A stretch of DNA of 64,000 bases, taken from NCBI GenBank assembly GCA_025336725.1, contig GCA_025336725.1_3647.1, one strand, 5' to 3'. Made by a program: the position numbers and the translations under genes. Below are positions 39,196 through 49,312 of the stretch, piece by piece. This stretch comes from Escherichia coli (GTDB taxonomy: Bacteria; Pseudomonadota; Gammaproteobacteria; Enterobacterales; Enterobacteriaceae). The notes under the pieces were generated by a model that was not told the DNA's origin, ran no database searches, and was given only the letters and a program-made list of their open reading frames with translations. Position 1 is the stretch's first letter. The number at the start of each line of letters is the position of its first letter.

Positions 39196-39465
39196 TTATC
39201 GAGGCACTCGGTGGATGATTCTAACAGTAACTGCATTCTCATTCATCAAGTAAGCATCCACATCTCTGTAAATATAAAACTTCTGCTCGCTATCAACAAC
39301 ACAAGCTACTGCCCCTTCAGAGTTGTCTTCAAAGAAGACCACTACTGCATCGCAGCTTAGTTCATGATACGACTCTCGAAGATTTACAGCAAGAGGGTTG
39401 AAATCGTCACGAAAATCTACAGTATGGGTTGGATTTACACGTTCTACAATTTTAAGTGTATACAT
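39196..39465 (-). CDS. hypothetical protein
   Basis: Track ORF 39196-39621 runs into the tRNA-Pro gene; realistic start is ATG at 39463-39465 (MYTLKIVERV...) with AAAGGAA RBS; 89 aa. Confidence 0.4.
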   Translation of the reverse strand: MYTLKIVERVNPTHTVDFRDDFNPLAVNLRESYHELSCDAVVVFFEDNSEGAVACVVDSEQKFYIYRDVDAYLMNENAVTVRIIHRVPR

Positions 39466-39508
39466 TTTTAGGATTCCTTTTGTATATATGTTTAAGGTAT
39501 GGTGAAAT

Positions 39509-39585
39509 TGGTCTCCACGGAGTGATTCGAACACTCGACCTCCTGATCCCAAATCAGGCGCTCTACCAAGCTGAGCTACGCGGAG
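39509..39585 (-). tRNA. tRNA-Pro (anticodon UGG)
   Basis: Manual cloverleaf: 7-bp acceptor (one G-U), D-stem GCTC/GAGC, anticodon loop UUUGGGA, T-loop TTCGAAT, encoded CCA; 77 nt. Confidence 0.8.
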
Positions 39586-39594
39586 TTTATAATT

Positions 39595-39669
39595 TGGTGG
39601 CCCTGGGTGGAATTGAACCACCGTCTGGCGATTATGAGTCGCTTGCTTGAACCTTCCAGCTACAGGGCC
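39595..39669 (-). tRNA. tRNA-Met or tRNA-Ile2 (anticodon CAU)
   Basis: Manual fold: acceptor GGCCCTG/CAGGGCC, anticodon loop CUCAUAA, T-arm GGTGG-TTCAATT-CCACC, encoded CCA; D-stem only 3 bp; 75 nt. Confidence 0.65.
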
Positions 39670-39670
39670 A

Positions 39671-39746
39671 TGGTGCTGATGGCAGGACTCGAACCTGCAA
39701 CCTATTGATTACAAATCAATTGCACTACCAATTGTGCTACATCAGC
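39671..39746 (-). tRNA. tRNA-Thr (anticodon UGU)
   Basis: Manual fold: perfect 7-bp acceptor GCTGATG/CATCAGC, D-stem GCAC/GTGC, anticodon stem ATTGA/TCAAT, loop UUUGUAA, T-arm GCAGG-TTCGAGT-CCTGC, CCA; 76 nt. Confidence 0.8.
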
Positions 39747-39751
39747 AAAAA

Positions 39752-39850
39752 GGTGCTAGGCGATGGAATCGAACCACCTATGTATTCAACGACTACTTCG
39801 TCTATTTTCAGGATTAAAAATCCTCGCCCTTGCCAAAGGGCCTACCTAGC
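39752..39850 (-). tRNA. aberrant tRNA-like element (Lys-UUU-like anticodon loop, ~30-nt extra segment); possible pseudo-tRNA
   Basis: Good acceptor (GCTAGGT / GCCTAGC), D-arm (GCCC-N8-GGGC) and T-arm (GGTGG-TTCGATT-CCATC), but the anticodon stem is only 4 bp (loop UUUUUAA) and ~30 nt separate it from the T-arm; no encoded CCA; 99 nt. Confidence 0.3.
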
Positions 39851-39948
39851 ATATTATGCGAATCATGCTGCTAGTCGGCGATGACGACTGTAACATTTGT
39901 TAATCCGGTTCTGCTTCCGGAGCTCGCTTAATTTCATGATCCACGATC

Positions 39949-40038
39949 TGGCAGAGAGTAATGGAATCGAACCATCATCGAGGATATCTCAACGGGACGG
40001 TTTTCAAGACCGCTTGAGCACCATGCTCCCTACTCTCT
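39949..40038 (-). tRNA. tRNA-Ser (anticodon UGA)
   Basis: Manual fold: acceptor AGAGAGT/ACTCTCT, anticodon stem-loop GCGGT-CUUGAAA-ACCGT, ~20-nt variable arm with small hairpin, T-arm GATGG-TTCGATT-CCATT, CCA; 90 nt (type II). Confidence 0.7.
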
Positions 40039-40150
40039 TTTTATAAACAACACTGATAATGACACTGATTTTCGAACAGTTAGTGACTAGTATAAACGAC
40101 GATAAACATCAATGTCATTATCTATGTTATTTATCACAAATATGTAATTT

Positions 40151-40237
40151 TGGTGGGGAGTGATGGAGTCGAACCACCCGAGTCGCAATGACAATAGATT
40201 TACAGTCTACACCGCTACCCCTACGGTATAACTCCCC
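40151..40237 (-). tRNA. tRNA-Tyr (anticodon GUA)
   Basis: Manual fold: acceptor GGGGAGT/ACTCCCC, anticodon loop CUGUAAA, 15-nt variable arm hairpin (GTC-ATTGC-GAC), T-arm GGTGG-TTCGACT-CCATC, CCA; 87 nt. Confidence 0.75.
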
Positions 40238-40241
40238 GATT

Positions 40242-40316
40242 TGGCACCCCGTACTGGACTCGAACCAGTGTCAACGGCTTAGAAGGCCGCTGCTTTATCC
40301 ACTAAGCTAACAGGGC
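40242..40316 (-). tRNA. tRNA-Arg (anticodon UCU)
   Basis: Manual fold: acceptor GCCCTGT/ACGGGGT (two G-U pairs), D-stem GCTT/AAGC, anticodon stem GCGGC/GCCGT, loop CUUCUAA, T-arm ACTGG-TTCGAGT-CCAGT, CCA; 75 nt. Confidence 0.7.
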
Positions 40317-40374
40317 ACTGGGTGGCTTTCTTTTACACCTGAGCCGCCAGAAAAGGTGGGAGACCATGTTTATA

Positions 40375-40403
40375 ATATTACACTGTTAAGCAAAGTTTGT
40401 CAA
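40375..40403 (-). promoter_or_regulatory. sigma70-like promoter upstream of the tRNA cluster
   Basis: On the minus strand: TTGACA, 17-bp spacer ending in TG, then TAATAT; about 60 nt upstream of the tRNA-Arg 5' end. Confidence 0.5.
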
Positions 40404-40412
40404 GAAAATATT

Positions 40413-40606
40413 TTAACTGTTGCTAACAGGCTGTATTTCGGTGGTAAACGGCATAAAAGGTGCTGGTTTTTCAGCCTCTTCTACTACCACCTCTTCTTCC
40501 TCTTCACCAAACATCTCATCATATTCTTCCTGCATTCTGTCTGCCTTGTCAAGGACATACTCTGCAATGCTTTGACGAATATTTTGTTTGGTTTTCGGAT
40601 CCAACA
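40413..40606 (-). CDS. hypothetical acidic protein (may extend into the assembly gap)
   Basis: ATG at 40604-40606 (MLDPKTKQNIRQ...), Glu-rich C-terminus; the track ORF extends through the N-run, which cannot be trusted. Confidence 0.35.
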
Positions 40607-40607
40607 T

Positions 40608-40708
40608 CNNNNNNNNNNNNNNNNNNNNNNNNNNNNNNNNNNNNNNNNNNNNNNNNNNNNNNNNNNNNNNNNNNNNNNNNNNNNNNNNNNNNNNNNNNNN
40701 NNNNNNNN
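40608..40708. other. assembly gap (run of N)
   Basis: Unresolved bases seen directly in the sequence. Confidence 0.99.
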
Positions 40709-40716
40709 AAACAACC

Positions 40717-40959
40717 TCATTGTAAAGCACAAATAAATAAAACATACTTAATTTGTTTGTTATCGGGCTCAGGGTAGAAGTAGAAGATCTTGCTATCACC
40801 AATCTGAACACCACCATCCCAACAACATAAACCATAACCCGTATTCATACAAGCTAAGTCGTTGGCAAAATCTATTGCATCATCTAGTGCACGAAATTCA
40901 CCTTCATCTTCTAAATAATCCTCATTCATGGAGCGGAAAACGAGCTTAACCTTAAACAT
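40717..40959 (-). CDS. hypothetical protein
   Basis: 80 aa ORF; ATG with AGGTAA 6 nt upstream; stop lies just before the N-run. Confidence 0.4.
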   Translation of the reverse strand: MFKVKLVFRSMNEDYLEDEGEFRALDDAIDFANDLACMNTGYGLCCWDGGVQIGDSKIFYFYPEPDNKQIKYVLFICALQ

Positions 40960-41035
40960 AGCATTACCTGTAGACCTCGTAAGTTAAAATTGCATCACAT
41001 CATATTGCAGATCTTATCAGGTAACACTGTTTTTG

Positions 41036-41224
41036 TCAACAGATTCCGGCCTTATCCTTCCTGTCTGCGTACTCTTTAATCGCAATCTCATCTGCATTGA
41101 GGGCCAAGCCTTCAAAGTAATCCTCAAGCTCCTCGTCAATATCAGGAGACCAGCTCTTTTTCCTGTCAGTGTGAATTGCAGACTTGTTGAACTTATTACA
41201 GTTCTTTGCTACCGGATTGTTCAT
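41036..41224 (-). CDS. hypothetical protein
   Basis: 62 aa ORF; ATG preceded by GAGGAG RBS. Confidence 0.45.
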   Translation of the reverse strand: MNNPVAKNCNKFNKSAIHTDRKKSWSPDIDEELEDYFEGLALNADEIAIKEYADRKDKAGIC

Positions 41225-41244
41225 TAGCTCTCCTCAGCGTTCAT

Positions 41245-41480
41245 AGTAAATTTTATTTAACATTACCTCATTCTTTGCAGAAAGAATACCGAGATATGCA
41301 TCACCGAACCTACCTGCAACAACCTCTGCATGATACATCACTTCGTTAATATCGTCAAGAGTGATAACTGGATGACCGTATCTCTCTGAATATTGTCTTA
41401 GAGTGCGATGTAGAGAGTCGTCATCGTAGGCAGACTTTTTAATATCGCAAACACGACGAATAGCCTTGATGTCGAAAAAC
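41245..41480 (-). CDS. open frame without start codon; probable frameshifted C-terminal continuation of the upstream gene
   Basis: About 75 codons open in a shifted frame (...GFFDIKAIRRVCDIKKSAYDDDSLHRTLRQYSERYGHPVITLDDINEVMYHAEVVAGRFGDAYLGILSAKNEVMLNKIYYER) directly after the stop of the 41492-41812 ORF; no in-frame ATG until the last 35 codons. Confidence 0.3.
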
Positions 41481-41491
41481 CCTGTGCGATA

Positions 41492-41812
41492 CTAACCAAA
41501 GGAAAGTGTCTCATCAGTATCAACATCTACATCAATACTAGCAAGAACCTTATCTACAAGATAGCTGTCATCCTTTGGACTAGCTTCCTTAGTGCGAATG
41601 TAGTTGCCATCTTTCCCTGGTGACAACTCCTTCTCATCACCAACTCGCATGTCATCGTTTGGCGGTGTTAACCACTTATCTGGATGCTTACGATCACGAG
41701 CGTCCGAATGATTGCGCTGGAAACCTGGCTTCCACTTGAAAGTTTTCCCCATCTGTTCTTCATCCTGATAACGTTTTGCAATCTTTTCTCGGTCATGTTT
41801 GCGTGAGCTCAT
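41492..41812 (-). CDS. hypothetical basic protein
   Basis: 106 aa ORF; ATG preceded by GAGGAG RBS. Confidence 0.45.
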   Translation of the reverse strand: MSSRKHDREKIAKRYQDEEQMGKTFKWKPGFQRNHSDARDRKHPDKWLTPPNDDMRVGDEKELSPGKDGNYIRTKEASPKDDSYLVDKVLASIDVDVDTDETLSFG

Positions 41813-41934
41813 AGCTGACTCCTCTTCAGGTTATAGAAAAACTCACTGTATCGCTTTGTAACAAGCTTTTCTATCAATCTGGTGTGATTGCCTTACCTAA
41901 TGTAGTTCACACAGCTGTAGAGCGATTTAGAGGC

Positions 41935-42180
41935 CTTCTTGCCAGTTTCCACACATAAACTTTAAACAAACTCGCGCGGGAGACTCTCAACCGACTCCTT
42001 ACGGCGCTTGCAAGCTTTCGTCGGCGGTCCACATTAGTGCTCGGCCTTTGGCCTGCGCTATAGCTTCGCTACCACACATGTGAACAGTCATGCATGTATG
42101 CACGCCTGTTATTGTGTGCACTATGGAGGCCCGGCATCTCGCCCCTCATAGGCGAGTGCCAATGAAGGGCCGACACTATA
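41935..42180. other. GC-rich non-coding island with nested inverted repeats (candidate structured RNA or cis element)
   Basis: No ORF of 60 aa or more on the minus strand; visibly GC-richer than flanks; perfect palindrome GCTTGCAAGC; hairpins GGCC-TTT-GGCC and CTCGCC-N7-GGCGAG nested within GGCCC...GGGCC. Confidence 0.3.
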
Positions 42181-42315
42181 CCAGTAAGTAATAAATTTAA
42201 AACATAATACTTTAGATCTAGTATATTCTACATAAGTTAAGTATATGTACTTTAGTACCATAAGTACTAGATCTTTTATTTTTTATTATTTAGTTATTTT
42301 AGTTATATTCTTTAT
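42181..42315. promoter_or_regulatory. AT-rich region with 10-bp inverted repeat pair (possible DNA-unwinding element)
   Basis: Highly AT-rich; AGATCTAGTA (42214-42223) and its reverse complement TACTAGATCT (42265-42274); lies directly beside the palindrome array. Confidence 0.3.
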
Positions 42316-42398
42316 GTGTCCGTATCACGGACAGTTAGTGTCCGTATTACGGACAGATGTGTCCGCGTGGCGGACAGTAGTGTCCGTCTCACGGACAG
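42316..42398. repeat. array of four tandem 17-bp palindromes TGTCCGY-N3-RCGGACA at 21-22 bp spacing (iteron/operator array)
   Basis: Four units start at 42316, 42338, 42359 and 42380: GTGTCCGTATCACGGACAG, GTGTCCGTATTACGGACAG, GTGTCCGCGTGGCGGACAG, GTGTCCGTCTCACGGACAG; each core is a perfect inverted repeat with 7-bp arms and 3-bp spacer. Confidence 0.8.
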
Positions 42399-42419
42399 TT
42401 GGTAATCTTTGTGCTGTTG

Positions 42420-42448
42420 TGGACATAAAACATACATACCTTTATAAT
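42420..42448 (+). promoter_or_regulatory. sigma70-like promoter adjacent to the palindrome array
   Basis: TGGACA (42420-42425), 17-bp spacer, TATAAT (42443-42448); the -35 overlaps a DnaA-box-like TTGTGGACA; it would fire antisense to the winged-helix gene. Confidence 0.4.
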
Positions 42449-42472
42449 ACAAATATTTAAGTTTTTACTGGT

Positions 42473-42823
42473 CTAACCAGTTGTCGACATGTGAATCACT
42501 TCTTCTGGTGGTAAAACTTTAGAAAATGTGCATCTTTTCCCTCTCCCTTGTGTGGAAGTTTCAACTATCCCAGCACACTCTAAAGTTCTAACGCATTCTG
42601 CTGCTTTCGTTTTCTTAATCCCTGTATCAGCTGCAATTTTCCTTGTGCTTGGTGTGAATCGTGAATTTCCTCCAAGCTTATACCAGTTGTGCAGATAGCA
42701 GTATACTACCTTGTCATACAGATCAAGAATAACCACCTCTCCTGTTGTAGTATTCAAAACTTTCGACAGAGAAAGTATCCCAAGCGGGACTTTAAGATAG
42801 GGCAGCTTATCCTCATCTTTCAT
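42473..42823 (-). CDS. putative winged-helix DNA-binding protein (candidate iteron/operator binder)
   Basis: 116 aa; C-terminal half PSTRKIAADTGIKKTKAAECVRTLECAGIVE looks like a helix-turn-helix/winged-helix recognition segment; stop lies 75 bp from the palindrome array. Confidence 0.4.
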   Translation of the reverse strand: MKDEDKLPYLKVPLGILSLSKVLNTTTGEVVILDLYDKVVYCYLHNWYKLGGNSRFTPSTRKIAADTGIKKTKAAECVRTLECAGIVETSTQGRGKRCTFSKVLPPEEVIHMSTTG

Positions 42824-42870
42824 ATCTCCTGATTCTCCTTGTGTGGATATTTTCTTTAATATAGCAGGGA

Positions 42871-43425
42871 TTACTCCCTGCTGTCAATATCAAAACCCAT
42901 TGCAAGGCCGTATGCCTCTTCTAGCGGTAACAGTCTCCCCCACACATCCCAACCAACATCCAACTGCCTGCCAAATAACTGTTGTGTGGTTCCGTGAGCA
43001 TGACCAAACAGTTGAACTGATCCGTGGGGCTTTCTGTTCCACGTTGCAAACTGGTAATGGCTCATACAGATCAGATTCTTGTTGTGGCGAAGCTCGTAAT
43101 AATCTACAACCTCATGACAGAACTCTTTCATAATTCTGACAGTCGTCCTTGTGTCATGGTTACCACGAACAAGAATAATATGTCCGTTCAGCATATTTAG
43201 AATTTCAGGCAGTAAGTTGTTGATATTCTTATCCTTAGTGCATGCAATGTCTCCCAAGTGGAACACGGTGTCCCATGGTGACACAATTGAGTTCCACTTG
43301 TCTATGATCCCTGCATTCATGCTATCAAGATCGTGGTTATACTGCGATCTGTGCTTTTGACAAGAATCGAACTCCATAACACGCTGGTGGAGAAAGTGTG
43401 TGTCACTTGTTATAAAATATTTCAT
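42871..43425 (-). CDS. calcineurin-like metallophosphatase (candidate RNA 3'-phosphatase)
   Basis: 184 aa; metallophosphoesterase motifs ITSDTHF, GD (HLGDIA), VRGNHD, and a His cluster (HAHG); adjacent to a P-loop kinase and divergent from an Rnl1-like ligase. Confidence 0.6.
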   Translation of the reverse strand: MKYFITSDTHFLHQRVMEFDSCQKHRSQYNHDLDSMNAGIIDKWNSIVSPWDTVFHLGDIACTKDKNINNLLPEILNMLNGHIILVRGNHDTRTTVRIMKEFCHEVVDYYELRHNKNLICMSHYQFATWNRKPHGSVQLFGHAHGTTQQLFGRQLDVGWDVWGRLLPLEEAYGLAMGFDIDSRE

Positions 43426-43432
43426 ACTATCC

Positions 43433-43843
43433 TCATTTAAGTTTAATACAGTTTTTCAGTTCACGTTCCATACGATCCACAACCCTTTCTGGAACATTGT
43501 GGATACTTTTGTTACCGTGGCGATTCTCCACCACGATTACGGTGTAATTATACCCATTACGGATCGCCATGTCAATATACTCTTGCACATGCTTTTCTTT
43601 TGTGAATGTGTTGCTTACCACGACACGGTCGTATCCCATACGCATCATATCTTCTATATTATCTTTGCACCATTTTGCAGCAAGTGTGACTTTACTTGCA
43701 TCCCAGTTGTAATTTCCATCATCGTCGTACCAGAACATGTCGTTCTCAAAATGTGGATACAGACCTTCTAAAGATAGCGCATTTGCCAGTGTTGATTTGC
43801 CAGACCCTGGTAGACCACGCACGATATACAGCATTTTAGACAT
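43433..43843 (-). CDS. polynucleotide-kinase-like P-loop kinase
   Basis: Likely start ATG 43841-43843 (MSKMLYIVRGLPGSGKST...) with GGAGGG RBS; Walker A GLPGSGKST and VVVSNT segment resemble the T4 Pnk kinase domain. Confidence 0.55.
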   Translation of the reverse strand: MSKMLYIVRGLPGSGKSTLANALSLEGLYPHFENDMFWYDDDGNYNWDASKVTLAAKWCKDNIEDMMRMGYDRVVVSNTFTKEKHVQEYIDMAIRNGYNYTVIVVENRHGNKSIHNVPERVVDRMERELKNCIKLK

Positions 43844-43961
43844 AGCGACCCTCCGTTTTAATTTTAACGACAGTATACCGTGTTCTTTTGAACATTTCAA
43901 GTGTTGACATGATGCTGTTTGTGTGGGAAGATTGTGTAACAAAATGACAAACGAGGAACGT

Positions 43962-44879
43962 ATGATGAAGTATTTTAATGCAGATGATTTAGTGGATAAA
44001 GGTCTTGTAACCAGTCGGTATTATCCAAATCTCGGATTAAAGATCTACAAATATGCCAGAAAAGTATTCTACAACAATTTATGGCATTTGTCTCCGCGTC
44101 TACTGGAGTGCCGAGGCATTGTTGTCGGTAACGAGGGGAATGTTGTGGCATGGCCCTTCACAAAAGTGTTTAACTTAGGAGAAAACTCCACCAACCTACC
44201 TGACAATAAGCTTGTGACGGCTGTAGAGAAAAAGAACGGGTTCCTTGGCGTGGTATCCTCTCATAAAGGTGAACTATTGTTCTCAACGACTGGGTCTCTT
44301 GATTCTCCATATTGTAACCTTGCAAAGGAAACCATCCAGGAGCAATGTGGCAATTTAGATCTTATCAAGAAGGTTATGGGCCATGAAAACATGACATTTA
44401 TGTTTGAAATTTGTCACCCTTCAGACCCGCATATTGTTCATGAGGATCATGGTGCGTATTTGATAGGTTGTAGATACAATGATTCTGGAATAATGCTACC
44501 AGAAGCGGCTTTAGACGGTATTGCCAAGTATCTTGGTGCAAAACGTCCTCACACTGTGCGTGAAATTCCGTTCAGCTATGCAAAAGAATTAGCTGCAGAA
44601 ACAAGAGGTGAAGGGTATATGATTCGTAAGCCTTACTACCCTTATGATCTGCAGCTGAAGATCAAGTCTCCATACTATTTGGCACGGAAGGCCGTAATGA
44701 GGGGTAAAGCTTGGAAGATTTGGGATGATGATATCTTTAAACGTGTTGACGAAGAGTTTTATGGCATGGTAAACTTCATTCGTAGCAATTACACAGAAGA
44801 TGTGTGGAACTGCCTCCTGGAGCAAGAACGTCGTGAGATACTTGACTGCTATTTCCACAACGAGGACTATATGCAATGA
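43962..44879 (+). CDS. RNA ligase, T4 Rnl1-like
   Basis: Shares LECRGI, KVFNLGEN (T4 KFFNLNEN) and nucleotidyltransferase motif I lysine VEKKNGFLG (T4 KEDG); motif IV EGYMIRK and V LKIKSP. Track start is GTG 43923; ATG 43962 has GAGGAA RBS. Confidence 0.7.
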   Translation: MMKYFNADDLVDKGLVTSRYYPNLGLKIYKYARKVFYNNLWHLSPRLLECRGIVVGNEGNVVAWPFTKVFNLGENSTNLPDNKLVTAVEKKNGFLGVVSSHKGELLFSTTGSLDSPYCNLAKETIQEQCGNLDLIKKVMGHENMTFMFEICHPSDPHIVHEDHGAYLIGCRYNDSGIMLPEAALDGIAKYLGAKRPHTVREIPFSYAKELAAETRGEGYMIRKPYYPYDLQLKIKSPYYLARKAVMRGKAWKIWDDDIFKRVDEEFYGMVNFIRSNYTEDVWNCLLEQERREILDCYFHNEDYMQ

Positions 44880-44924
44880 AGAAGTGGAAAGTTCTTTTTA
44901 ATCATTCCAGCTTAAGGGAGCTGT

Positions 44925-45533
44925 ATGAAACTTGTGCATGGTGTTGGTGTTAATGATGCAGACTATCCTGTCAGGGTTTTAGACAAGGATACCGGAAAGA
45001 GAATCATGTGTCCTTTTTATATGACATGGTCAAATATGCTAGGAAGGTGCTACCTTAAAAACAAGAAATTTGAAGCTTATGCTATGGTAGAAGTTTGTGA
45101 AGAATGGAAAATCTTCAGCAACTTTAAGCGCTGGATGGAAAAACAAGATTGGCGGGATAAATTTTTAGATAAAGATATCCTGTTTGAAAATAATCTTATA
45201 TACTGTCCAGAAGCGTGTATTTTTGTTCCTCGTGAAATAAACAACTTCTTTGTAGCAAGGGTACCACAAAGAGGGGAGTGTTTGATGGGAGTAAGAAGAA
45301 AAGGCCCATCTTTTGCTGCCTATTGCAAAGATGGGGTTAATGACACACAGGTTTATCTTGGAACCTTTCCCACGCAGATTGAGGCACATATGAAATACTT
45401 GGAATGCAAACTGCAACTTCTTAGAGACTTGATTAGAACTGTAGATGACAGTAGGTTGCTATTAGGATTACGAAGAATTGAGAGTAAGATAGTTTTAGCT
45501 TTATCTTCAAAAACACCGATAGAAAATTTTTAG
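44925..45533 (+). CDS. homing-endonuclease-like protein with AP2-type DNA-binding domain
   Basis: 202 aa; N-terminal YMTWSNMLGRCY...EAYAMVEVCEEW motif common to phage endonuclease-associated domains; C-terminal VYLGTFPTQIEAHMKY AP2-like segment. Confidence 0.45.
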   Translation: MKLVHGVGVNDADYPVRVLDKDTGKRIMCPFYMTWSNMLGRCYLKNKKFEAYAMVEVCEEWKIFSNFKRWMEKQDWRDKFLDKDILFENNLIYCPEACIFVPREINNFFVARVPQRGECLMGVRRKGPSFAAYCKDGVNDTQVYLGTFPTQIEAHMKYLECKLQLLRDLIRTVDDSRLLLGLRRIESKIVLALSSKTPIENF

Positions 45534-47392: not shown

Positions 47393-47418
47393 AGCCGGGG
47401 TTACCCGGCTTTACCTGT
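47393..47418 (+). terminator. rho-independent terminator-like hairpin
   Basis: AGCCGGG-GTTA-CCCGGCT followed by TTACCTGTTGTGG; immediately after the stop of the 46673-47386 gene. Confidence 0.45.
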
Positions 47419-47758: not shown

Positions 47759-48011
47759 TCTTGCTAAACCTGTAGAAGCACACCAGTTTGATGGAAGCTC
47801 TTCCTCAGCATCTGATCTGCAACGGTGGATTGATACAGGTGAGTTTACATCGTCACCTGTTCGGACCAGAGATATTCGTCGCATGTGTGAGCTTGTCGAG
47901 CGTTTGGTAACCTGGTCTTTTACAGGGGATTGGTTAGTTGACTTTATGGGAGACTGGCTGGTAATGAGTAAAGAAGAAATGTTTAAAATTTTTAAGGAGG
48001 AGACTGAGTAA
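47745..48011 (+). CDS. hypothetical protein
   Basis: 88 aa ORF overlapping its neighbours by a few nt (operon packing). Confidence 0.4.
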   Translation: MPLFNLAKPVEAHQFDGSSSSASDLQRWIDTGEFTSSPVRTRDIRRMCELVERLVTWSFTGDWLVDFMGDWLVMSKEEMFKIFKEETE

Positions 48012-49312
48012 TGCATCAAATCAAAACACCCCTGTACGCACTAAACAAAGATGGCAGTTACCAGCAGTGGAAAGTATTCACAGATGGTGAAAAGGTTATC
48101 GTAGAGTTTGGCAAGCTTGGCGGTAAATTGCAGTATAAAGAAACAGTATGCACGCCTAAGAACGTAGGTCGATCCAACGAGACTACAGCTGAGCAACAGG
48201 CCGAGCTGGAAGCGATCAGTAAGTGGGAAAAACAAGTTCGCCTGGGGTATGTTGAGAATATGGAAAATTGCGAGCAGGGTGTTGACCTTTTACCCATGCT
48301 GGTGCATGACTACCTGAAGCGTGGCAAGGCACTTAAATTACCTTGCTGGATCTTGCGTAAGTTAGATGGCCTTCGTCTGCTTGTTGTTTTCCAAAATGGT
48401 GAGCCTAAATTTATTTCCCGTGGTAATAAGTCCTACCCTATTCAAGGAAAGCTTTTAGAGCAACTTCGTTCTTTCCATTCTACCACTGGGATTAAACAAC
48501 TTGATGGGGAACTATACATTCATGGTCTTCCTTTGCAGAAAATAGTGTCTCTTGCTAAACGGTGGCGCACACAGGAAGAGATTCAGGCCGAGATCGATAA
48601 AGACTACGAGGCAGATAAAAAACGCCGTCATGCCGCAATTAAGGCAGGCTTATCAACATACAAAAACTTCAATAAGGTAGATATTCCTGTTGATGTTGAG
48701 CCTGTTCGTGATGATTTGCGTTACGGAGGGTATTGTAGCTATGACTTAGAGTATCATATTTTCGACATCCCTAGCGACAAGGTATGGTGGGATCCGGAAA
48801 CAGAATCTGGACGCTGTAAGGATCTTATGGATGCAGAAAATACCATTACCACTCTGATGCTTGACCATATCAAGGTTGTTGACGCAGAACTTGCGTACAC
48901 AGTTGATCATTGCGAAGAATCTGTTGGTGTATTCATGTCCGAAGGGTATGAAGGCACTATCATGCGTAACTTCTGTGGTAAATATGAATACGGTCAGCGA
49001 ACATCTGAAGCGTTGAAATGGAAAAAATTCAACGACACGGAAGCCAAAGTGGTGGATGTAGAAAAGGATAAGAACGATGAGGGTGTTCTTGTCTGTGTTG
49101 ACAAGGAAGGTGTTGTTGTTAAAATGAAGATGAAAGGGACGCACGAGGAGCGTAGTTATGACCGGATGCTGGAGTTGATTGGTAAGTTTGTGACTTTTAA
49201 ATATCAGGCGCGAACAGAGGATAACAACTTCCAGTTCCCGGTGGCTATATGCGTCCGAAATGTTAACCAGACACTTGGGAGGTGCTGGAATAATATAGGG
49301 TTTAGTAGGTAA
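48011..49312 (+). CDS. ATP-dependent DNA ligase (nucleotidyltransferase superfamily)
   Basis: 433 aa; motif I KxDGxR (LRKLDGLRLLVV), motif IV EGYEGTIMR, motif V ALKWKKF. DNA versus RNA ligase not resolved by eye. Confidence 0.55.
   Translation: MHQIKTPLYALNKDGSYQQWKVFTDGEKVIVEFGKLGGKLQYKETVCTPKNVGRSNETTAEQQAELEAISKWEKQVRLGYVENMENCEQGVDLLPMLVHDYLKRGKALKLPCWILRKLDGLRLLVVFQNGEPKFISRGNKSYPIQGKLLEQLRSFHSTTGIKQLDGELYIHGLPLQKIVSLAKRWRTQEEIQAEIDKDYEADKKRRHAAIKAGLSTYKNFNKVDIPVDVEPVRDDLRYGGYCSYDLEYHIFDIPSDKVWWDPETESGRCKDLMDAENTITTLMLDHIKVVDAELAYTVDHCEESVGVFMSEGYEGTIMRNFCGKYEYGQRTSEALKWKKFNDTEAKVVDVEKDKNDEGVLVCVDKEGVVVKMKMKGTHEERSYDRMLELIGKFVTFKYQARTEDNNFQFPVAICVRNVNQTLGRCWNNIGFSR

Follow-up and report, generated by a model that had tools for sequence, protein, structure and literature searches.

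This work concerns three neighbouring genes in a 64,000-nucleotide stretch of DNA, hereafter the window (contig GCA_025336725.1_3647.1 of the Escherichia coli assembly GCA_025336725.1), whose source is, as shown by its match to phage records, a Vequintavirinae (rV5-like) coliphage. The genes code for a binuclear metallophosphoesterase, a stand-alone P-loop kinase and an Rnl1-like RNA ligase (Table 1), and probably serve the repair of cut RNA. A sequence-only reading of the window, made by a model without database searches, had proposed these three open reading frames (ORFs) as a split RNA-repair module; all three are present in the ORF list where that reading had placed them. The kinase and phosphoesterase genes are only 7 nucleotides apart, and the ligase gene is divergent from them across a spacer of 118 bp. 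The kinase gene starts with an ATG preceded by GGAGG. For the ligase the sequence-only reading had taken the GTG at 43923, which is the longest-ORF choice. The ATG at 43962 has GAGGA ahead of it and yields a protein of the length annotated in phage JohannBauhin, and we regard it as the more likely start.

It must be noted that the locus has already been described computationally, and as a scan finding it adds nothing beyond existing annotation and published comparative genomics. GenBank records label the genes polynucleotide kinase, phosphoesterase and RNA ligase. The same neighbourhood, with 'Escherichia phage V5' as prototype (type 2, V5 / Proteus phage Mydo), was described by Iyer, Burroughs, Anantharaman and Aravind in 2022 (PMC9503650, section 3.7.3). 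These authors proposed that the sirtuin encoded there acts, like KptA/Tpt1, on a 2'-phosphate, and that opening of the cyclic phosphate, or processing of ADP-ribose cyclic phosphate (ADPr>P), is the task of the other enzymes; the kinase was termed only 'a nucleotide kinase', and it was suggested that the calcineurin-like enzyme may process ADPr>P. A survey of jumbo phages published by the same group in 2021 (PMC7824862) had defined the cREC domain and noted that calcineurin-like phosphatases occasionally replace HAD phosphatases beside ATP-grasp RNA ligases. In a 2025 paper on Pakpunavirus (PMC12846349) a kinase-ligase pair, in which the kinase lacks the phosphatase domain of T4, was interpreted as a tRNA-repair device.

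Table 1. Genes and other features at the locus (coordinates refer to the window).
Feature	Coordinates	Strand	Remarks
Binuclear metallophosphoesterase, 184 aa (amino acids)	42871..43425	-	aq_1665-like clade; candidate RNA 3'-end healing enzyme (2',3'-cyclic phosphodiesterase and/or 3'-phosphatase)
Stand-alone P-loop polynucleotide-kinase-like protein, 136 aa	43433..43843	-	candidate 5'-OH RNA kinase
Divergent intergenic region, 118 bp	43844..43961		promoter scan and sequence
Rnl1-like ATP-dependent RNA ligase, 305 aa	43962..44879	+	alternative starts GTG 43923, ATG 43944
HNH homing-endonuclease gene	44925..45533	+	phrog_953 1.7e-69
cREC (cyclic-phosphate-processing receiver domain), 115 aa	45542..45889	+	PF20274 cREC_REC 1.2e-16
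Sir2-family NAD+-dependent enzyme (predicted), 253 aa	45898..46659	+	PF02146 3.8e-27, phrog_2162 2e-109
MazG-like nucleotide pyrophosphohydrolase, 237 aa	46673..47386	+	phrog_671 6e-22, no Pfam match; last gene of the ligase operon
GC-rich palindromic hairpin AGCCGGGGTTACCCGGCT	47393..47410		terminator scan and sequence
Phage tRNA cluster (context)	39509..40316	-	six ARAGORN calls (Pro, Met/Ile-CAT, Thr, Ser, Tyr, Arg) and an atypical tRNA-Lys(UUU)-like gene

Genomic linkage of the phosphoesterase, kinase and ligase families

A block of 2.6 kb around the three genes was matched by 120 phage records. In 118 of these at least 80% of the block is found in one place, and the identity is mostly ~91%; Vequintavirinae sp. 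EcoIv14a_Aya gave the best match (97.4%). Because the block is conserved to this degree in 118 records, and because the three families co-occur in distant phage lineages as described below, the trio is not a chance assembly; its arrangement goes far beyond chance. The matches to positions 42400-45000 also included 18 unannotated 'Campylobacter phage' records (e.g. A135, A147, C11), which are ~91% identical to the rV5-like sequence of the window. The host labels of these records are probably wrong, or the isolates were contaminated.

The trio is grouped on the metagenomic contigs L003 and L004. On a 124-kb contig a 42%-identical phosphoesterase adjoins an Rnl1-like ligase, likewise 42% identical, and an AAA_33 kinase. 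Another phosphoesterase (33% identity) has a kinase and a 37%-identical ligase within 5 kb. The phosphoesterase, the ligase and an 'ATPase' form a co-directional operon in ESCO5 (Phapecoctavirus) and in Vibrio phage PS17B-2, and a segment of ~2 kb holds all three genes in JG004 (Pakpunavirus) and phiPsa267 (Otagovirus); the phosphoesterases of these four phages align with the family of the window protein. In other phages the genes form one operon, from which the divergent layout of Vequintavirus differs by a local inversion. The sequence-only reading had called the combination unusual for a phage. This view had to be abandoned: the ligase family was found in 763 phage records, and the trio is operonic in Phapecoctavirus, Vibrio phages and many IMG/VR contigs and grouped in Pakpunavirus and Otagovirus. 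The split trio of kinase, phosphoesterase and short Rnl1 is much more widespread than the T4 combination of Pnkp and Rnl1.

The linkage was surveyed in 80 IMG/VR loci carrying ligase homologues of 35-49% identity, which were scanned with the family profiles. The phosphoesterase was found in 64 loci (58 within 1.5 kb) and the kinase in 55 (51 within 1.5 kb); 45 of the 80 loci had both, always on the same strand as the ligase. Sir2 was detected in 9/80 and cREC in 8/80 loci, by single-sequence searches, which are less sensitive. Eleven of the 80 loci contained kinase-ligase fusion ORFs of ~430 aa, in four of which, when checked, the kinase covered about residues 7-142 and the ligase 149-428. Because kinase and ligase are fused here in single ORFs, they would be expected to act on one substrate, and we consider the fusion strong evidence for a shared substrate. 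Both proteins also match the same family, phrog_8238. The linkage fades with distance, since no ligase or kinase was found within 6 kb of the distant phosphoesterase homologue P0280 (35% identity; L006, L007). Taken together, the conserved linkage and the kinase-ligase fusions support the joint heal-and-seal function that had been proposed for the trio.

Two observations were made on individual loci. In the fusion loci L039, L042-L044, L046 and L048-L052 the AAA_33 kinase is N-terminal and the ligase C-terminal, and the phosphoesterase family was not detected in these loci by the profile scan. In JG004 (L008) and phiPsa267 (L011) the ligase-kinase pair adjoins genes similar to those of ribose-phosphate pyrophosphokinase and nicotinamide phosphoribosyltransferase; these neighbours are similar to genes of NAD+ reconstitution, a hint that genes of RNA repair and of NAD+ metabolism may share a broader neighbourhood.

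The ligase, the kinase and the phosphoesterase

The ligase matches PF09511 RNA_lig_T4_1 (1.5e-14) and phrog_562 (7e-66). A search of the PDB with the single sequence gave no match. The family profile, built from 22 homologues of 41-49% identity, matched T4 Rnl1 (2c5u) with an E value of 9e-14 over T4 residues 50-249, and detected no Trl1 ligase domain in the PDB at E <= 1. The motifs of the nucleotidyl-transferase domain are present, namely motif I (K90 in KKNG), STTGS, FEI (E149), EG(Y/F)M and KIKSPYY. In the profile alignment with T4 Rnl1 motifs I, Ia, IV and V were matched, and E149 of motif III is a family invariant. The residues that do not vary in the 22 homologues are R51, G52, K68, F70, N71, K90, E149, E217, G218, K233 and K235. 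Five of these are in the segments LLECRG (R51 G52) and PFTKVFN (K68 F70 N71), which align with the ECRG and KFFN segments of T4 Rnl1. Mutagenesis in the Shuman laboratory reportedly established which residues of T4 Rnl1 are essential, Arg54 and Lys75/Phe77 being among them.

The protein is not an orthologue of T4 RnlA: it misses the equivalog cut-off by far and the C-terminal domain is unmatched. It belongs to a short, distinct clade of Rnl1-like ligases. We also rejected the possibility that it is a DNA ligase, as its only matches are to PF09511 and T4 Rnl1 and the window has a separate ATP-dependent DNA ligase gene at 48011-49312 (+). The assignment as an Rnl1-like enzyme made in the sequence-only reading is thus upheld.

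The kinase matches AAA_33 (1.4e-10), phrog_2071 ('ATPase', 1e-57) and, with lower significance, phrog_505 'polynucleotide kinase' (5e-10). It has more than 8000 stand-alone homologues of ~130 aa, over 100 of which span 107-143 aa. Its gene product consists of the kinase domain only, with no fused HAD (DxDxT) 3'-phosphatase domain. A PDB search with the single sequence returned noise only. The family profile gave weak but consistent matches to PSTK (8e-5), Pnkp1 (3e-4), T4 Pnk (1e-3) and CthPnk (1.6e-3). In the alignment of the hidden Markov model (HMM) the invariant D35 corresponds to the catalytic Asp of T4 Pnk, D35 (D38 in CthPnk), and VSNT to ISDT of the T4 enzyme; the P-loop reads GLPGSGKST. 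The T4 Pnk sequence used and PDB 1ltq had identical scores and coordinates; a plain pairwise alignment with T4 Pnk was unreliable and was discarded in favour of the HMM alignment. In T4 Pnk the arginines R38 and R122/R126 serve in binding of the 5'-terminal nucleotide and in the lid. In the window protein an invariant ENRHG (R108) and H115 are found where the lid is expected, in a part that was left unaligned by the HMM and where the confidence score of the AlphaFold model (predicted local distance difference test, pLDDT) is 50-76; the score of the whole model is 83.8. When the model was compared with known structures by Foldseek, the query-based TM-scores (TMq) were 0.70-0.76 for T4 Pnk, 0.73-0.75 for CthPnk and 0.70-0.72 for PSTK, and did not exceed 0.65 for small-molecule kinases among those listed. 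The HMM alignment and the structural model support the view, also taken in the sequence-only reading, that the protein is polynucleotide-kinase-like in its fold and catalytic core, the structurally nearest enzymes being polynucleotide and tRNA kinases and not small-molecule kinases.

The phosphoesterase matches Metallophos with 23.4 bits (cut-off 21.5), Metallophos_2 with 26.9 bits (cut-off 27) and phrog_547 'phosphoesterase' with 3e-50. Its metal ligands D8, H10, D59, N89, H90, H123, H142 and H144 are invariant across 28 homologues, and so are the glycines G58, G88 and G141 of the metallophosphoesterase motifs GD, GNH(D/E) and GHxH. The model has a pLDDT of 91.7 and all its top fold matches are metallophosphoesterases; the structural neighbours include the small-molecule phosphodiesterases LpxH, GpdQ, YfcE and MJ0936. 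Classification as a Pnkp- or lambda-type enzyme was rejected, because by sequence and structure its closest relationship is not with these enzymes; it belongs to the aq_1665 clade. The invariant metal ligands and the fold thus justify the term calcineurin-like, but the likeness to bacterial Pnkp, which had also been claimed, does not extend beyond the level of the superfamily.

Surroundings of the three genes

The ligase operon continues with genes for cREC, a Sir2-family protein and a MazG-like protein, which had been absent from the account given by the sequence-only reading. In the relatives HMD-6, JohannBauhin and Gotham the ligase stop codon overlaps the cREC start and is followed by Sir2 and the MazG-like gene, the same gene order as in the window; a MazG gene is found near the ligase in distant phages, too. 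The hairpin downstream of the MazG-like gene probably ends the operon, and phage Gotham has an annotated terminator in the corresponding position. In the window the HNH gene is inserted exactly at the overlap of the ligase stop and the cREC start, where it has replaced the first cREC codons. HMD-6, JohannBauhin and Gotham do not have the gene at this position, and the sole other phage record that carries it is SKA64 (87.7% identity). The HNH gene is a mobile insertion and not a working part of the module. cREC is predicted to open cyclic phosphates (PMC7824862, PMC9503650). The Sir2-family protein has kept GAGLS, TTNVD and HVHG but has no CxxC pairs, i.e. the usual Cys4 zinc module is absent, in agreement with the 'distinct clade of sirtuins' described in PMC9503650.

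In the divergent spacer the promoter scan found a promoter-like site for the kinase-phosphoesterase operon at 43900..43872 on the minus strand, which is a consensus match only; a minus-strand promoter was annotated by PhagePromoter at the equivalent place in phage Gotham. For the opposite direction there is a TTGACA at 43904-43909 (+), again a consensus match only, followed by just a weak -10 element. A perfect sigma-70 consensus (TTGACA, 17 nucleotides, TATAAT) lies at 43547-43575 (-), within the kinase ORF and upstream of the phosphoesterase gene. It is the sole perfect consensus in the window, where 0.01 would be expected by chance. Its -35 element is conserved in the relatives and the -10 element is variable (TACAAT, TATAGT), and the sequence is also under coding constraint.

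Downstream of the phosphoesterase gene, at 42473-42823 (-), there is a gene for a helix-turn-helix (HTH) protein (DUF6945/HTH_36; PHROG 'replication initiation protein') with a promoter-like site of its own at 42887..42858. It is probably not a member of the module, as it has its own promoter-like site, is unlinked to the ligase in other lineages, and its orthologue in Bas54, another member of the Vequintavirinae, has low transposon insertion counts. The mean of the latter was 13.6, far below the counts of the six repair genes given below, and the HTH gene may be important for the phage.

The tRNA gene nearest to the module is that of tRNA-Arg, which ends at 40316, 2.55 kb from the phosphoesterase gene. 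A run of 100 N at 40609-40708 separates the cluster from the module, and the ORFs listed across this run contain X residues. An Rfam scan of 39300-44000 found tRNAs and sub-threshold noise only. Between tRNA-Thr and tRNA-Ser, at ~39753-39850 (-), lies an atypical tRNA-like gene of ~97 nucleotides, which was not called by ARAGORN in the window; the call in JohannBauhin is 'tRNA-??? (atcc)', and relatives annotate tRNA-Lys-TTT. Rfam gave a sub-threshold tRNA-Sec-like match of 29.5 bits, and the predicted fold resembles a cloverleaf in which the anticodon may be UUU and the extra arm is long. tRNA-Lys(UUU) is the target of PrrC and PARIS, and the atypical gene could code for a nuclease-resistant replacement tRNA.

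A probable split RNA-repair pathway, its alternatives and known systems

The cleavage of tRNA, by PrrC, RloC, PARIS, the collateral activity of Cas13a and tRNases of the retron-linked and OLD types, is a major form of bacterial defence. We think it probable that the trio is a split heal-and-seal pathway by which the rV5-like phage repairs RNA cut by ribotoxins, most plausibly tRNA. The repair function put forward in the sequence-only reading is, as far as predicted activities go, probably right overall, as suggested by the Rnl1-like ligase, the Pnk-like kinase, the linkage and the fusions. Host ribotoxins such as anticodon nucleases would cut tRNA, leaving a 2',3'-cyclic phosphate and a 5'-OH. 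The 136-aa kinase would phosphorylate the 5'-OH, with Asp35 as general base as in T4 Pnk, and the metallophosphoesterase would open and/or remove the cyclic or 3'-phosphate to give a 3'-OH, perhaps assisted by cREC. The ligase would then self-adenylylate on Lys90, transfer the AMP to the 5'-phosphate and seal the break. cREC, the zinc-less sirtuin and the MazG-like enzyme would probably be an optional, NAD+-linked branch that processes 2'-phosphate or ADP-ribose cyclic phosphate, as proposed in PMC9503650.

Data on dispensability are available for Bas54. The orthologues of the six genes (bas54_0206 to bas54_0211) tolerate transposon insertions, with mean counts of 88-406 in HIDEN-SEQ, thus the module is accessory. 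It is dispensable in the laboratory, as expected of a counter-defence function.

Several results weigh against the proposed RNA-repair pathway. In the comparison tables, which according to the paper refer to two uropathogenic isolates, the six Bas54 genes showed no significant depletion (log2 fold change +0.13 to +0.43, q >= 0.75), and we found no biochemical or genetic evidence in the searchable literature for any member of the three families. With the NCBIfam equivalog model of T4 RnlA, TIGR02308, the ligase scores 39.4 bits at a cut-off of 242 bits, matching model positions 32-250 of 373, and in the profile alignment no counterpart of the C-terminal domain of T4 Rnl1 (about T4 residues 255-374), which confers tRNA specificity, could be detected for its last ~65 aa. 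The sequence matches of the kinase to T4 Pnk and CthPnk are weak (E ~1e-3), and the position of T4 Arg38, three residues beyond the catalytic Asp, is occupied by Phe or Trp, so this arginine has no equivalent. The nearest solved relative of the phosphoesterase, Aquifex aeolicus aq_1665 (PDB 1xm7), has no known function, and the proven RNA end-healing metallophosphoesterases, lambda phosphatase and CthPnkp, are distant from it. Finally, the proximity to tRNA genes, within 4 kb according to the sequence-only reading, holds within Vequintavirus but is not conserved outside it: in the other lineages looked at, those of ESCO5, PS17B-2, JG004 and phiPsa267, no tRNA gene was seen at up to 4 kb from the ligase.

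A more comprehensive scheme would make the six genes a complete RNA repair pathway with the trio as its ancestral core. The aq_1665-type enzyme would heal the 3' end, cREC would open 2',3'-cyclic phosphates, the zinc-less sirtuin would remove the 2'-phosphate by ADP-ribosyl transfer as an analogue of Tpt1/KptA, and MazG would clear the nucleotide by-product. The activities assigned here to the aq_1665-type enzyme, to cREC and to the sirtuin would be new. The idea of a six-gene pathway is that of Iyer et al. (PMC9503650); in this full form we consider it unlikely.

The presence of Sir2, cREC and MazG-like genes in the ligase operon also suggests another explanation, namely that the module serves mainly in NAD+/ADP-ribose counter-defence, where kinase and phosphoesterase would join these three proteins in acting on small derivatives of nucleotides or ADP-ribose and the ligase would be a passenger or a user of the metabolite. 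The cautious term 'nucleotide kinase' and the ADPr>P processing allowed for the calcineurin-like enzyme in PMC9503650 agree with it, as do the Prs-like and Nampt-like NAD genes beside the ligase-kinase pair of JG004 and phiPsa267 and the small-molecule phosphodiesterases among the structural neighbours of the phosphoesterase. However, Sir2 and cREC, even if the searches for them were less sensitive, are much rarer in the surveyed loci than phosphoesterase and kinase, the fusions argue for a kinase that acts on the polynucleotide substrate of the ligase, and the best structural matches of the kinase are polynucleotide and tRNA kinases. We regard this explanation as quite unlikely.

It is less likely still that kinase and phosphoesterase are partners of the ATP-dependent DNA ligase encoded nearby, for which they would heal DNA ends (5'-OH, 3'-phosphate) in replication, repair or protection from host nucleases. 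T4 Pnk also works on DNA. The DNA ligase gene begins 3.1 kb downstream of that for the RNA ligase, and a DNA ligase is again found close to the trio in L003, ESCO5, JG004 and phiPsa267 and in 22/80 IMG/VR loci. Yet kinase and phosphoesterase are usually directly beside the RNA ligase, with the kinase sometimes fused to it, whereas the DNA ligase is 0.6-4.4 kb away and often absent in the survey, and the ligase that accompanies them is Rnl1-like, with no DNA-ligase OB domain. That the three genes are neighbours without a common pathway, the ligase e.g. catalysing the attachment of tail fibres, as T4 gp63 does in its second activity, and the other two serving in unrelated housekeeping, is very unlikely: many records do carry the T4 label 'RNA ligase and tail fiber protein attachment catalyst' and rV5-like phages have many tail fibres, but the label is inherited annotation and not evidence, the linkage over several divergent lineages and the gene fusion would be hard to explain, the invariance of all nucleotidyl-transferase catalytic residues means that ligase chemistry is under selection, and Bas54 ligase mutants give viable phage.

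As a scan finding the locus is ordinary; as a very widespread predicted phage RNA-repair system it has moderate residual value. The phages that carry the ligase family include therapeutic candidates (rV5-like, phi92-like, Pakpunavirus). If the split RNA-repair pathway is confirmed, it would give a function to the aq_1665 clade, help to explain host range and allow a test of whether a sirtuin can substitute for Tpt1.

It is useful to compare the trio with known systems. To our knowledge, T4 Pnkp (PseT) and Rnl1 (gp63), which counteract PrrC, are the only phage repair system with experimental backing. The logic of 5'-kinase, 3'-end healing and Rnl1-type ligase is the same in the window. The ligases have the nucleotidyl-transferase domain and the essential residues in common, the kinases the fold, the P-loop and the catalytic Asp. 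In contrast to T4, the end-healing functions are split between two genes, the phosphatase is a binuclear metallophosphoesterase and not a HAD/DxDxT acylphosphatase, the ligase has a short unrelated C-terminal region of ~65 aa in place of the T4 C-domain, and the kinase is without the Arg38 equivalent. The relative of the phosphoesterase, aq_1665, is a cellular structural-genomics protein and not a phage one; its function and substrate are not known, so it adds nothing on activity.

A P-loop polynucleotide kinase and a calcineurin-superfamily metallophosphoesterase are also combined for RNA end healing in Clostridium thermocellum Pnkp/Hen1 and Capnocytophaga Pnkp1-Rnl-Hen1. In these bacterial systems both, together with a ligase-like domain, are parts of a single polypeptide that has the methyltransferase Hen1 as its partner, whereas the window has no Hen1 and its ligase is Rnl1-like. 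Fungal and plant Trl1 with Tpt1 use a kinase, a cyclic phosphodiesterase, a ligase of the Rnl1 superfamily and NAD+-dependent removal of the junction 2'-phosphate, and the analogy to the sirtuin and cREC was drawn in PMC9503650. The window has neither a 2H cyclic phosphodiesterase nor Tpt1/KptA, and a Tpt1-like role of the sirtuin is pure prediction.

The closest parallel is the V5/Mydo neighbourhood (PMC9503650), the published description of which is likewise a prediction. There the sirtuin is taken as the centre and the phosphoesterase is termed 'occasional'; when the ligase is the starting point, phosphoesterase and kinase are the commonest partners, and Sir2 and cREC are rarer. Apart from the added HNH insertion the gene content agrees: the T4-like ligase, cREC, the nucleotide kinase, the sirtuin, MazG and the calcineurin-like phosphoesterase are all found between 42871 and 47386 of the window.

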